DNA from: an uncultured virus (IMG/VR IMGVR_UViG_3300021400_004415)
Taxonomy: Duplodnaviria; Heunggongvirae; Uroviricota; Caudoviricetes
IMG/VR virus record: IMGVR_UViG_3300021400_004415
DNA length: 64,000 nucleotides
Reading direction: 5' to 3' (one strand)
The notes beneath the pieces were generated by a model. That model did no database searches. It was not told the DNA's origin and worked only from the letters and a program-made list of their open reading frames with translations. The position numbers and the translations under genes were made by a program. Positions 58,172 to 62,415 of this stretch are shown one piece after another (the first letter of the stretch is position 1; the number at the start of each line of letters is the position of its first letter).

Positions 58172-60151
58172 ATGAAGAAGCAAACTTGGATATTTACTCT
58201 CGTTCTGTTCGTCTTGCTTTCCGCGGTCCTTTCCTGCGGAACGTCAAAGAAGATACAGACCGTGCAGACTAAGCAGTTGTCTGCTTATCTGGCTCTTTCC
58301 CGCAACGAGCTTGCGGAGGAACGTAAGGTCATCAACTCCGGTGACCGCGATACCCTCGTCATCAAGGACGATGAAGGAAAGGAGTTCATTCTTATGAAGG
58401 CTATCCGTGACGAGGAGACTGGCGAGATGGTCGCCAACGAGGTTATCGACGCGGCTGTTATTACGGCGAAGTTCCGCAACGTGGCCGAGCGTCACGGTAA
58501 GGTGGATCTCCGCTTTGAGGTCATCGTCCCCCAGGAGATGATTGACACGAAGTGGCAGCTTGTCTTCAATCCGGATATGTTCATCCTTGAAGACAGCATC
58601 CGCCTGGAGCCTGTTATCATCACGGGTGAGGATTTCCGCAAGAAACAGGTGCGTGGTTATGAGGCTTATGACAGGTATCTTAAGAGTATTATTACAGACT
58701 CGACGGCGTTTGTTGACTGGAGAAACGTAAATGTCTGGATATCAAGGAATTTGCCTGATTTGTACCGTTATAAGAACGATACCTCTTTCGTGGATCTTGA
58801 CGAATTCCACTCCCGTTTCGGCCCGACTGAACGGGATGCCATTCTGCACTATACTTTGTGGTCCAAGAAACGTCATCACGAGAAGATGTGGTACGAGCGC
58901 GGTCATAAGTTCGAGGAACTGGTTAAGGTTCCTATCCGCAAGACCGGAATCAAGCTCGATACCGTCCTCCGTGACGTGCAGGGTAACTTCGTTTTCCAGT
59001 ACACCCAGACTATCAAGACCCGTCCTAAGCTTCGTAAGGTGGACGTGGTGCTTTCCGGCGATATCTATGAGCAAGACCAGCACCTGTACAGTATGCCCCG
59101 GAGCGAACCTTTGACTTTCTATATTTCTTCCCTGTCTTCCTTCGTGGATAACACGGAGCGTTATATGACAAAGATTATCGAGCGTAGGGCTTCGGCCAAT
59201 ACCGCTTGCTATGTGGATTTTGCTCAGGGTAAGTCCGATATTGACATGTCCCTCGGTCATAACGAGGAGGAGATGGGCCGTATCAGGGGCAATATCCGGG
59301 AGTTGCTTAACAATACCACCTTTGATATTGACTCAATTGTGATTGCGGCCTCCGCATCGCCCGAAGGAACTACCAAGGCTAACGGCCTGCTTGCCGAGAA
59401 GCGTGCTGCATCTGTTGCTAATTATTTCCAGGATTATATCAGGCATTATCGTGACTCGGTTCGTAAGAATTCCTTCGCCCTTGAAGTGGACGAGAACGGA
59501 CGCGAAAGGGTGGTTCACACGGAGGTGCCTAACATTTCCTTTAGTTCTCATTCTGCTGGAGAGAACTGGCCTTATCTGACTGTTCTTGTGGATGAAGATA
59601 GCGTGCTGACTCAGGCTGACAAGTTCAACTTTATGAAGAAGCTTGAGATTGCTGATGTGGATGCTCGTGAGAAGGAGATGCAGTCCGAGCCTTACTATAA
59701 GTACATGAGAGAAAACCTTTATCCGAGGCTCAGGACTACGAAATTTAGCTTTTTCTTAAGTCGCCGTAACATGCAAAAGGACACGATTCATACTACTGTC
59801 CTTGATAGTACTTACATGCAGGGTGTCCAGTATCTGCGTGACCGTGAGTACGAGAAAGCCCTGACTCTCCTGCGTGATTACCGGGATTACAACACGGCTA
59901 TCGCATACGTGTCCTTGGATTACAATGCTTCCGCAATGGCTATCCTCCAGGAACTTAAGAAAACCCCTCAGGTGAACTATATGCTTGCTCTCCTGTATGC
60001 TCGTAACAACGACGATCAGAAAGCCGTCCAGCATTATATGGATGCCTGTAAACAGGAGCATTCCTATGTCTTCCGAGGAAACCTTGACCCTGAGATTTAT
60101 GTCCTTATTCAGCGTTACGGCTTGAATAAGCAGGAAGATGAAGAATTCTAA
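58172..60151 (+). CDS. DUF3868/OmpA-like lipoprotein with C-terminal TPR-like region, pilus-locus associated
   Basis: Lipobox LSC, VDFAQGKSDID, ASASPEG..N..LA.KRA, GENW, LYPRLR. Confidence 0.75.
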   Translation: MKKQTWIFTLVLFVLLSAVLSCGTSKKIQTVQTKQLSAYLALSRNELAEERKVINSGDRDTLVIKDDEGKEFILMKAIRDEETGEMVANEVIDAAVITAKFRNVAERHGKVDLRFEVIVPQEMIDTKWQLVFNPDMFILEDSIRLEPVIITGEDFRKKQVRGYEAYDRYLKSIITDSTAFVDWRNVNVWISRNLPDLYRYKNDTSFVDLDEFHSRFGPTERDAILHYTLWSKKRHHEKMWYERGHKFEELVKVPIRKTGIKLDTVLRDVQGNFVFQYTQTIKTRPKLRKVDVVLSGDIYEQDQHLYSMPRSEPLTFYISSLSSFVDNTERYMTKIIERRASANTACYVDFAQGKSDIDMSLGHNEEEMGRIRGNIRELLNNTTFDIDSIVIAASASPEGTTKANGLLAEKRAASVANYFQDYIRHYRDSVRKNSFALEVDENGRERVVHTEVPNISFSSHSAGENWPYLTVLVDEDSVLTQADKFNFMKKLEIADVDAREKEMQSEPYYKYMRENLYPRLRTTKFSFFLSRRNMQKDTIHTTVLDSTYMQGVQYLRDREYEKALTLLRDYRDYNTAIAYVSLDYNASAMAILQELKKTPQVNYMLALLYARNNDDQKAVQHYMDACKQEHSYVFRGNLDPEIYVLIQRYGLNKQEDEEF

Positions 60152-60210
60152 CAGACAATTATAAATACTTTTTATCAACCATTTTATAAACCTTTTTTAA
60201 CAAAAGTATC

Positions 60211-61356
60211 ATGAAAAAAATTTCTATTCTTTCCCTGACTGTCGCCGCCCTGTTCGGCGCTTTCTCCTGCAACAAGAACGTTGTTACTCCCGAGGAGCAG
60301 GTTCTTGGTGACCTCCCTAACGGTTCCCTTACCGTCAACATCGGCGCCGTCGATGAGACCAAGGCAGACCTTTCCGCCATGAAGGATTTCCGCATCAACA
60401 GTGTCCAGGTCTTCGTCTTTGACGCCAACAACCGTCTTGAGACCGACGTTTACAAGGACGGTATCAGCGCTGACAACAGCACTCAGGTTACTATCAACAC
60501 CAAGACCGGCGCCAAGACCGTTTACGCTCTCCTTAACCACAGCCGTCTGAGTTTCACTACCGGTTCTGCCGGACAGCTTCTGGCTGACTACGAGGCTAAG
60601 CTCACCGACCTCAGCGAGAACACCAGTGAGACCGACCTTGTGATGACCGGTAAGAACACCGTGAACGTTACCGATTACAACAACCAGGGCGCCGGTGGCA
60701 CTCCTCAGGCTGTTAACATCTTCGTGAAGCGTCTTGTTTCCCGCATCCAGCTTGACGGTGTAACCGTTGACTTCCGCGGTACTTCCCTCGAAGGTGCAGA
60801 CTTCACCGTTCAGAAGATTTATCTGAAGAACGTTGTTGGTAAGAGCCCTATCGGCATGCAGGGTCTGACTGGCGTTTCTGACGTTACTTCCACTATCCTT
60901 CCTAAGCTTCTTCCCGACGATCAGTATGATGTTGCTGCCAACTGGTACAACAAGATGAAGGAAGAGGCCGGCGCACCTGCCGTTATTTCGGATTCTTATT
61001 CCAAGGCTTGCAACGTGGCCGGCACCATGACCGACCTCAAGCGCGTTCTGTTTGCATTCCCCAACGCTACCAGCGGTGACAGCAATAACGCCACCTGGGG
61101 CAAGCGTCACACCCGTATCGCTATCAAGGCTCACGTTACCAAGTCTGCCGTAGGCATTGACAAGGACACCTACTATGTTCTTGACCTGCCCGTCCTCGTA
61201 GCTAACACTATCTACGAAATCGACAACATCAACATCACCCAGCTTGGTAAGGATGACGACAGCTCCGACGAGGGTATCAAGGTTGGTAAGGAGACCTACA
61301 CTATCACCGTGGATCCTTGGAACCCTACAATCACTCACCTGAACTACGAGTTCTAA
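60211..61356 (+). CDS. Type V pilus subunit, probable major fimbrillin (FimA/Mfa1-like)
   Basis: Lipobox FSC, TKA processing site, VQVFVFD, YALLN, VKRLVSRI, C-terminal ITVDPW strand; strongly biased codon usage. Confidence 0.85.
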   Translation: MKKISILSLTVAALFGAFSCNKNVVTPEEQVLGDLPNGSLTVNIGAVDETKADLSAMKDFRINSVQVFVFDANNRLETDVYKDGISADNSTQVTINTKTGAKTVYALLNHSRLSFTTGSAGQLLADYEAKLTDLSENTSETDLVMTGKNTVNVTDYNNQGAGGTPQAVNIFVKRLVSRIQLDGVTVDFRGTSLEGADFTVQKIYLKNVVGKSPIGMQGLTGVSDVTSTILPKLLPDDQYDVAANWYNKMKEEAGAPAVISDSYSKACNVAGTMTDLKRVLFAFPNATSGDSNNATWGKRHTRIAIKAHVTKSAVGIDKDTYYVLDLPVLVANTIYEIDNINITQLGKDDDSSDEGIKVGKETYTITVDPWNPTITHLNYEF

Positions 61357-61461
61357 TTTCTTCTGAGGGAATTGTCTGCGTCAGTCGCACTGCCATGACG
61401 GCTTGACGTAGCGGGCGGGAACAGATTCATAGGCTTTTGGTCTTCCCGCCCTCCCTTTCTC

Positions 61462-61555
61462 GGGGGACTGCCTGGCGCACTGGTCGCCGTATGACTTTCC
61501 GGACACAAAAATTCATTACGGCATCCTGGGGGTTCGACACCCTTGTCCTCCACAA
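61462..61555 (+). ncRNA. tRNA-like element with G3-U70/A73 acceptor stem and T-arm
   Basis: GGGGGAC pairs with GTCCTCC, then A-CAA; T-arm GGGGG-TTCGACA-CCCTT; central GCCGTATGA/TCATTACGGC helix; no canonical anticodon arm. Confidence 0.55.
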
Positions 61556-61569
61556 TTTTAAATTAAACC

Positions 61570-62415
61570 ATGAAGAAGTTTTTTATCATACTTTCCGCTG
61601 CCTTGGGCATCGTATCATGCAGGAGCCTCGTTCTTGAGAACAGGGTGGACTGCCCCAGTTTCCTTTATTTCGACATTGAGAACAGTGAGCGTTTCGAGGA
61701 CTGGGACAGCCTCTATGTCAACGTCTATGCGCATCCGAATGGTTCGCTTATCGACGAGGCCAAGACTATTATCTCTACCGTCCAAACTGAGGACAGGTCG
61801 AAGAAGTTCTACTTCGTCGTCAAAGGAACCGAAGCCGTCAAGGGCTACGGTCTCCTTGGGCAGGACGGGCTTATCCAGGACGGGACGTCATGGGTGACCC
61901 CTCTCGGAAGTGAGTATGCTCCGCTGTTCCGTTTCTCTTATATCGAGAATGTGCAGGAAGAATCGTTCACCGTCCCCGTGGAGTTCGTGAAGGATTACTG
62001 TCACGTAAAGGTTCAATTCGTGGGCTATGAGACCTTTGCAGCCGCTATGGGGCGTTTCCCTTTCGATGTCCTTATCCGCAGCAATACGAGCGGAATAGAC
62101 GCCCTTACGGGCATCCCCGTGCGTTCTCCGTTCGAGTTCCGCCCCGAGGAGAAGAAGGTCGGCTTCTTTGAGTTTAATTTGCCGCGTCTCGGCGACCAGA
62201 ACCTCACCATGGAACTCTACGGCCGTGAGGGCCTTGCCGAGAGGACGGGCCACACTGCGACGTTCGATCTGTACGCCGACCTGCTCAACCAGGGCGGCCT
62301 GACATGGACCGAGAAGAACCTTCCTGATGTGGATATCATCATCGACTACCAGGAGCACACCGTGAATATCAACGTCTGCGCCTGGTCGCATAACGATATC
62401 TCCTACGAGTATTAA
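61570..62415 (+). CDS. Type V pilus anchor subunit (FimB/Mfa2-like)
   Basis: Lipobox VSC followed by LENRVDCP; C-terminal INVCAW strand. Confidence 0.75.
   Translation: MKKFFIILSAALGIVSCRSLVLENRVDCPSFLYFDIENSERFEDWDSLYVNVYAHPNGSLIDEAKTIISTVQTEDRSKKFYFVVKGTEAVKGYGLLGQDGLIQDGTSWVTPLGSEYAPLFRFSYIENVQEESFTVPVEFVKDYCHVKVQFVGYETFAAAMGRFPFDVLIRSNTSGIDALTGIPVRSPFEFRPEEKKVGFFEFNLPRLGDQNLTMELYGREGLAERTGHTATFDLYADLLNQGGLTWTEKNLPDVDIIIDYQEHTVNINVCAWSHNDISYEY

Follow-up and report, generated by a model that had tools for sequence, protein, structure and literature searches.

The 64,000-nucleotide (nt) stretch of DNA analysed here, referred to as the window, belongs to an uncultured virus of the Caudoviricetes (IMG/VR record IMGVR_UViG_3300021400_004415). 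Two genes for type V pilus components, part of the operon of a gut bacterium, follow each other on its plus strand, a FimA-like major (stalk) pilin gene and a gene for an anchor-like type V pilin lipoprotein. They are separated by a gap of 213 nt (61357-61569), which holds two hairpins and, behind them, a transfer RNA (tRNA)-like element at 61462-61552. Judged from sequence comparison, this element is a tRNA top half under selection, and neither a tRNA gene nor a transfer-messenger RNA (tmRNA) gene. It appears to belong to a small family of intercistronic tRNA-like minihelices, which occur between the genes for FimA-like and anchor-like pilins and, in Mu-like prophage regions, in front of a gene resembling a transposase.

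The fold that an earlier, sequence-only reading had assigned to 61462-61552 was retraced in full. An acceptor stem with a G3:U70 wobble, the discriminator base A73, a T arm with the loop TTCGACA and a long central helix are all present, and the minimum free energy (MFE) structure computed by RNAfold agrees, being a four-way junction of -33.0 kcal/mol (z -1.83; 7 of 200 shuffled sequences as good). The D and anticodon arms are replaced by a 3-base-pair (bp) D-like hairpin (61469-61479) and the long central arm (61482-61526). The 3' end reads A-CAA (61552-61555) and lies 14 nt before the ATG at 61570, as had been noted. The whole gap folds in the sense direction with -76.4 kcal/mol, at a z of -3.02 that 1 of 200 shuffled sequences equalled, and so better than shuffles; its opposite strand, with a z of -1.31, does not. 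When both strands of the 64-kb window were scanned for seven of seven acceptor pairs, five of five T-stem pairs and an NTCRANN loop, 61462-61552 was the sole match. ARAGORN and Rfam, which had been suggested as checks, called nothing at this place: ARAGORN found 0 tRNA and 0 tmRNA in the window, and Rfam 15 gave no match at E<=10 on 60900-62000. The description as a tRNA gene was rejected on the grounds that ARAGORN made no call, RF00005 did not match and the D and anticodon arms are replaced, the acceptor and T-arm features alone being those of a tRNA. The nearest genome, G001, has one identical copy of the element (G001:C129) and no second copy. The central helix is known only from identical copies (G001:C129 and L115), and no relative with this insert was found.

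The element recurs at the same position in homologous pilus operons. Homologous junctions were gathered with the anchor protein in the same Bacteroidales genus (94/151 genomes at E<=1e-5; 35/401 at E<=1e-20). A uniform scan (seven of seven acceptor and five of five T-stem pairs) found a perfect minihelix ending no more than 60 nt upstream of the start at 8 of the 57 distinct anchor-like genes, and this acceptor/T-arm core shows compensatory changes. About 0.02 such matches would be expected by chance in the 57 upstream stretches, since the same scan gave about nine apparently random matches in 1.51 Mb. The eight loci are the window, L117, L122, L013, L017, L072 (a second operon in the nearest genome), L032 and L044, and ARAGORN called none of these eight elements, nor any element in the other related loci. 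The window, L117, L072 and L017 have a common layout in which one or more hairpins are followed by the minihelix, an A-rich leader and the ATG. A metagenome scan with the anchor protein returned only one identical locus and one 48%-identical locus, the latter without the element. The exact pattern of the short pilus form had three matches in 185,579 species genomes, all of them already in the element set. As a separate observation, the 185-nt gap before the anchor-like gene of L035 ends in a T-arm-like stretch with the loop AGCGACA followed by TCCA; it could not be scored as an element and may be a degenerate remnant of one.

Covariance-model searches of the 151 genomes of the genus showed minihelices of 43-44 nt with an encoded CCA, placed exactly 17 nt before an open reading frame (ORF) of 496-669 amino acids (aa), in four genomes. 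The four copies in prophage context are those of L142, L159, L160/L162 and L164, and L162 carries two elements. In L162, the one neighbourhood examined, the ORF after the minihelix weakly matches the integrase core rve (24.4 bits, below the Pfam cut-off); behind this transposase-like ORF come genes for an AAA_22 ATPase and a DUF3164 protein, each scoring above the cut-off, and a longer form of the minihelix precedes the DUF3164 gene. Because of the weak rve match, AAA_22 and DUF3164, the L162 region is probably a Mu-like transposable prophage. The element of L109 precedes a gene with a repeat like the C-terminal one of phage gp5. That ORF (L109:214-960) consists of numerous, almost identical 'TSTV..' repeats; its match to the C-terminal trimerisation domain of phage T4 gp5 is weak (28 bits, below the cut-off of 30.9). 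Beyond the genus, models R2 and R3 were run on 142 further genomes from the family and on 149 from the rest of the order; every match checked was a real tRNA, and the remaining matches were judged by tRNA-typical length only, under strict filters. As found in these searches, the element family appears confined to one animal-gut Bacteroidales genus.

Comparison of 13 distinct elements separates a fixed core from free parts. The 7-bp acceptor stem, 5-bp T stem, 7-nt T loop and a discriminator base are present in all of them. Likewise, in 13 of 13 the T loop begins with TTCGA, the two loop-proximal T-stem pairs are G:C and the base after the discriminator is C. Across the 13 elements 155 of 156 stem cells are paired, eight of them as G:U wobbles, which are mismatched on the other strand. 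In the model-fitted alignment of six short forms, 98.6% of the cells are paired and 8 of 12 pairs change on both sides, a value reached by 0 of 500 shuffles; sliding the partners cuts pairing to 47-67%. The stems stay paired while the flanking proteins drop to 24% identity. Pairs were counted on the six short forms (alignment A6) and in a separate table of the 13 elements; model R2 mis-registered three long forms (A4), and MAFFT misplaced the 5' acceptor strands of elements.

Conservation does not extend to G3:U70, the identity of the discriminator base or anything between the acceptor 5' strand and the T arm. Pair 3 is G:U in 2 of 13 elements (the window and L164), G:C in eight and A:U in three. 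Between the acceptor strand and the T arm, nine elements have a linker of 12-18 nt, one has 27 nt and three have 59-68 nt; the long central helix was seen in the lineage of the window only. The common form is 43-58 nt long, compared with about 91 nt in the window. In 12 of the 13 elements the acceptor stem ends 14-28 nt before the ATG; for L017 this distance is ambiguous. All 12 elements with upstream sequence lie between same-strand ORFs; L109 sits at a contig start.

These free parts bear on the suggestion, made in the sequence-only reading, of a minimal tmRNA-like or alanine-accepting RNA. The resemblance to the tRNA-like domain of tmRNA consists in an acceptor stem and T arm with a reduced D region, joined in the window copy by G3:U70. 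Since neither G3:U70 nor the central helix is conserved, a tmRNA-like or alanine-accepting role is disfavoured; moreover, no tag reading frame is present, and ARAGORN and Rfam were negative. A tmRNA was rejected as a candidate for lack of an mRNA-like domain, tag frame and pseudoknots, the insert being only 12-27 nt in most elements. A broader form of this idea takes the excised RNA of about 91 nt (43-58 nt elsewhere) as the actual product, a stable, CCA-ended, trans-acting small RNA like mascRNA, tmRNA-like or aminoacylated forms included. It could draw on the encoded CCA or C74, on the G3:U70 of the window and L164, and on the L117 element, which is near mascRNA-menRNA (RF01684). When the element-bearing loci were searched against Rfam at E<=1, this was the sole approach to a family (26.6 bits, E 0.21, gathering score 42.5) and no element matched RF00005; membership in RF01684 was rejected, as the best score, that of L117 only, falls short of the 42.5 threshold. 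The linker is neither conserved nor coding, and the strict position before a start codon points to a role in cis, which makes a trans-acting product decidedly improbable.

Table 1. Coordinates of the features at the pilin-anchor junction of the window and of minihelices in other loci.
Feature	Position	Strand	Basis and details
FimA-like major (stalk) pilin gene	60211-61356	+	381 aa; ORF list; Pfam P_gingi_FimA
Y-shaped double hairpin after the pilin stop codon, then pyrimidine run	61365-61457	+	MFE fold of the gap; closing helix 61365-61370/61452-61457
Acceptor-stem 5' strand GGGGGAC	61462-61468	+	predicted RNase P site 61461/61462, from tRNA geometry
Lineage-specific 59-nt insert replacing D and anticodon arms	61469-61527	+	fold
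T arm: stem GGGGG/CCCTT, loop TTCGACA	61528-61544	+	sequence, element table; stem strands 61528-61532/61540-61544, loop 61533-61539
Acceptor 3' strand GTCCTCC, discriminator A61552, trailer CAA	61545-61555	+	sequence, element table; acceptor strand 61545-61551, CAA 61553-61555
A/T-rich 14-nt leader before anchor ATG	61556-61569	+	sequence
Anchor-like type V pilin lipoprotein gene	61570-62415	+	281 aa; ORF, lipobox, AlphaFold model, Foldseek
Minihelix before transposase-like gene	L142:1505-1548		covariance model
Minihelix before transposase-like gene	L159 and L160, 1505-1547 (reverse-complement numbering)	-	covariance model
Minihelix before transposase-like gene	L164:1943-1985		covariance model

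The flanking genes had been named a major pilin and an anchor pilin, and both names appear apt. The upstream protein matches P_gingi_FimA in Pfam with 3.5e-8, above the family cut-off. The downstream protein has no match in Pfam, NCBIfam or the sequences of the Protein Data Bank (PDB), whether searched as a single sequence or as a 24-sequence profile. Its lipobox (S16-C17) is invariant in 24 homologues, and its AlphaFold (AF2) model, with a predicted local distance difference test (pLDDT) of 88 and a predicted template modelling (TM) score of 0.82, has a type V pilin fold. In Foldseek, the model matches 3gf8, 4qdg and 3pay best; Mfa2 (5nfi), the anchor of P. gingivalis, comes sixth (E 8.5e-10, TM 0.56). 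The features of a type V pilus anchor of the Mfa2/FimB class are thus found together: a lipoprotein with a type V pilin fold, whose gene directly follows the stalk pilin gene. As fold and gene order fit, anchor pilin is a reasonable label for the 61570-62415 product, with the anchor function itself predicted.

The 3' trailers of the elements can be compared with those of real tRNA genes. In the fetched loci, C follows the discriminator in 92 of 92 distinct tRNA genes, the commonest trailers being CAA (39/92) and CCA (19/92). The elements encode CCA in eight cases, CAA in four and CAG in one. Encoded CCA is enriched among them relative to the tRNA genes (8/13 vs 19/92; Fisher p 0.004, and p 0.013 with near-copies collapsed). 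Since the elements share the C74/CAA/CCA signature with real tRNA genes, the comparison suggests that they face the same 3'-end machinery as tRNA precursors; it also suggests that tRNA 3' maturation in this family keeps C74 and adds CA. An encoded CCA would suit the recognition of a minimal substrate by ribonuclease (RNase) P. RNase P RNA was found in four of the five element-bearing genomes, the fifth being 65% complete, and a full-length RNase Z homologue in all five (255-269 bits, below the curated cut-off of 293).

According to passages of PMC11143913, an acceptor stem with a T stem-loop is alone an efficient substrate of bacterial RNase P. The constrained parts of the elements (acceptor stem, T stem-loop, C74 and CCA) are the domain sufficient for RNase P, and they also define the t-elements of plants. 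For this reason, the reading preferred here, though tentatively, is that of a bacterial t-element, that is, a cis-acting signal for RNase P and the tRNA 3'-end enzymes. The sequence-only reading had proposed a tRNA mimic that serves as a processing signal, and the comparative data (8 of 57 junctions, compensatory changes, the invariant T loop and C74) favour it in that respect, the cleavage itself remaining a prediction. RNase P would cut the operon transcript at 61461/61462, and A61552/C61553, or a position immediately behind it, would be the target of the tRNA 3'-end machinery. The pilin mRNA would be left ending in the terminator-like hairpins upstream; the anchor mRNA would start at the minihelix or directly behind it, with a short A-rich leader that has no Shine-Dalgarno sequence. 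Separate stabilities of the two cistrons would then yield the shaft-to-anchor ratio. More generally, and with the same reserve, bare tRNA top halves might have been domesticated as operon punctuation, drawing RNase P together with the tRNA 3'-end enzymes, or else the ribosome, to the downstream cistron and so individualising it.

The 3' step is where a different reading enters. Encoded CCA inhibits RNase Z, so that with CCA encoded in 8 of 13 elements the 3' cut may fail to take place, in which case the anchor mRNA may keep the minihelix. It would then be a cap-like 5' structure or an aid to translation, the 5' end being made by RNase P or by a promoter. Such a retained minihelix could shield the anchor or transposase mRNA from 5'-end-dependent decay, or bind a tRNA site of the ribosome and so help initiation. 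What speaks for this alternative is how often CCA is encoded, enriched against tRNA genes, and how constant the spacing of minihelix and ATG is (14-28 nt in 12 of 13 elements, exactly 17 nt in the four prophage copies); the A-rich leaders without Shine-Dalgarno sequences are in line with it. Bacteroidales do not use Shine-Dalgarno sequences. On the other side, the literature searches yielded no bacterial precedent for ribosome recruitment by a tRNA top half, and any stable hairpin could shield a 5' end, with no need for an invariant T loop. Retention of the minihelix is rated as unlikely.

Transcript data were available as assembled contigs. The pilin gene is covered by assembled RNA contigs in four of four animal-gut metatranscriptomes. 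In run X1, the whole 1278-nt RNA contig corresponds to 60201-61478 with 0 mismatches and no loose end, and in X5, from another study, an RNA contig ends at 61474, again with no loose end; DNA assemblies continue across the site. The two contig ends hint, though weakly, that the RNA has a boundary at the element. There is no contig on the anchor gene in X1, X2 and X5, and none bridges 61479-61577 in any of the four runs, which was not used as evidence. Nor was the depth in X3 (15.2 for the pilin contig, 4.6 for the anchor contig at 61578-62232), since neither uncovered stretches nor contig depths can rank genes or reveal ends. At the other end of the transcript, the contigs of three metatranscriptome studies start at 60191-60201, within 10 nt of each other; these starts precede the pilin ATG by 10-20 nt and lie past the upstream gene, which ends at 60151. 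Because these starts coincide, the pilin RNA seems to have its own 5' end. No TANNTTTG box was found on the plus strand near 60191-60201, and none within the 213-nt gap; the sigma-70 scan is uninformative for this phylum.

Several observations weigh against the proposed processing signal. The contig ends at 61474-61478 fall 13-17 nt inside the element, away from the predicted cut at 61461/61462; the X5 contig measures 151 nt at a depth of 2.6, or roughly one read, and assembled contigs, the only RNA data, cannot show RNA ends. The base before the acceptor stem is not conserved among the elements. Most homologous operons (49/57) have no element, many of their junctions being 0-20 nt long or formed by overlapping genes, and L013 and L122 carry the minihelix without an upstream protective hairpin. 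On a tree of 24 anchor proteins, the presence of the element is scattered and needs at least five gains or losses, a number that 298 of 500 label shuffles also attain. Sister loci differ as well: L116 is without and L117 with the element, and so are L118 and L122, respectively. Such patchy presence implies that the element is dispensable and modulatory, or occasionally mobile. In the case of L116, the whole module was lost, and not gained twice, because the window and L117 share a homologous upstream hairpin whose stem is changed yet paired.

The two hairpins that the sequence-only reading had reported upstream are present in the MFE fold at 61374-61412 and 61413-61451, the second being GGGCGGGAA...TTCCCGCCC. 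In L117, the closest non-identical operon, hairpin 2 has a counterpart with an altered yet paired stem, the common loop core ATAGGCTTT and a T6 run. In the window, hairpin 2 is strong and is followed by TCCCTTTCTC; a simple terminator scan makes no call in the gap, because the loop exceeds the limit of the scan. It is conceivable that the gap holds only a terminator or attenuator and a 3' stabiliser behind a highly expressed pilin gene, the likeness to tRNA being incidental or historical. The conservation of hairpin 2 between the window and L117, the T6 behind it in L117 and the end of the X1 contig shortly past the hairpins would all fit. However, L013 and L122 have the minihelix with no upstream hairpin, the minihelix is without a U tract, a terminator has no need of the TTCGA loop, the G53:C61-type pairs or C74, and the scan calls nothing in the gap. 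A mere terminator is improbable.

A further suggestion of the sequence-only reading was a decayed tRNA or an attachment-site (att) remnant. In its wider form, this reading takes the element as functionless today: a tRNA pseudogene in decay, a footprint left by a mobile element or the remnant of an integrase att site. Its patchy presence on the anchor tree and the related minihelices in prophage regions agree with such an origin, as do the tRNA-Leu gene after the anchor-like gene in nine distant loci and a best global alignment of the window element to tRNA-Ser(UGA) genes (74 vs 50 +/- 3.6 for shuffles). Descent from tRNA-Ser was, nevertheless, not borne out, since the 5' 62 nt alone, without the T arm, align to real tRNAs no better than shuffles do (best 25 vs 22 +/- 3.1). 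The covariation of the stems speaks against a decaying tRNA: compensatory changes keep them paired at flanking-protein identities down to 24%. The element also keeps its place and its spacing from the ATG, and the nearest genome has no second copy. As a present state, a remnant is unlikely, and the reading without any function is considered highly improbable; it is possible that the element descended from some tRNA gene.

The constraint might also act on DNA, with short inverted repeats bound by a recombinase or a regulator. The acceptor strands are indeed 7-bp inverted repeats, and pilus loci in this group are often phase-variable. The eight G:T wobble cells, however, pair only on the sense RNA, the fold is strand-asymmetric, and the repeats lie 30-80 bp apart and enclose the T-arm motif. 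A DNA-level site is thus scarcely credible.

Among known systems, the proposed processing signal comes closest to the t-elements. The plant mitochondrial t-elements of wheat and Arabidopsis, as described in parts of PMC1920247, are tRNA-like structures without a canonical cloverleaf that contain GGTTCRANYCC and whose ends are mRNA ends made by RNase P and RNase Z. Passages of PMC6546412 report structures of this type as processing tags in Haloferax. As far as these sources go, the likeness lies in a non-canonical tRNA-like fold with the T-arm motif, embedded in mRNA; the motif is exact in 12 of the 13 elements, the window deviating by an A at the Y position. Unlike those organellar and archaeal cases, the elements lie in bacterial operons, are commonly 43-58 nt long, often encode CCA and stand 14-28 nt before a start codon. 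Cleavage was demonstrated there, whereas here it is predicted from sequence. RNase P is also known to separate the parts of a polycistronic transcript in the mRNA-tRNA co-transcript secG-leuU of E. coli (PMC2241853, in part) and to process the mRNA of the E. coli his operon (as cited in a passage of PMC11143913). The E. coli cases differ in that real tRNAs, or sites not obviously shaped like tRNA, are cut; here, a tRNA top half without the decoding part stands between protein genes.

With mascRNA of MALAT1 and with MEN-beta (RF01684), the elements have in common a tRNA-like fold placed directly after a stabilising 3' structure. In those systems, RNase P cleavage makes the 3' end of the upstream RNA. 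They are vertebrate nuclear RNAs, and with a sub-threshold match of L117 the comparison is one of analogy and not of membership. In the chaperone-usher pilus operons of Proteobacteria, papBA-type processing sets subunit ratios by an intercistronic RNase E cut at an unstructured site. The proposed cut would similarly give the major pilin mRNA a separate fate, with a tRNA mimic as its site and a type V operon of Bacteroidales as its setting. Full-text literature searches brought up no publication in which operons of Bacteroidales contain tRNA-like elements, and no Rfam family describing the element was found.

To our knowledge, the way in which type V pilus operons set the shaft-to-anchor ratio is not settled. 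In P. gingivalis, this ratio governs fimbrial length. If the proposed processing takes place, the ratio and hence the length of the pilus would be set by a tRNA mimic between the two genes, which is a concrete and testable mechanism, and the dosage of transposase in Mu-like prophages would be set by a minihelix in the same way. The elements would form a bacterial counterpart of mitochondrial tRNA punctuation and of plant t-elements, extending both from organelles and archaea to operons and prophages. They would also offer a compact natural part, down to 43 nt, for separating cistrons in Bacteroidales, and a new class for RNA-family databases, given that Rfam 15 has no match.

Real tRNA genes and other acceptor/T-arm structures were met in the fetched loci as well. 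In nine distantly related pilin-anchor loci with conserved synteny (L024, L026, L028, L029, L030, L031, L037, L040 and L041), the anchor-like gene is immediately followed, in the same orientation, by a real gene for tRNA-Leu(CAG) (e.g., L024:2285-2369), and the two may be co-transcribed as an mRNA-tRNA transcript. L143 carries on its minus strand, at about 1501-1573, a stand-alone truncated tRNA-Ser-like gene of 61-73 nt which lacks the D arm but has an acceptor stem, a variable-arm-like hairpin and a T arm. A TAAATTTG box stands before this gene, and a hairpin with a T run behind it; ARAGORN does not call it, and its Rfam tRNA score of 25.1 bits is below the gathering score of 29. In L168, an acceptor/T-arm match at 1961-2019 has CCA at its end and a terminator hairpin behind it, and may represent the 3' part of this genome's tmRNA gene.

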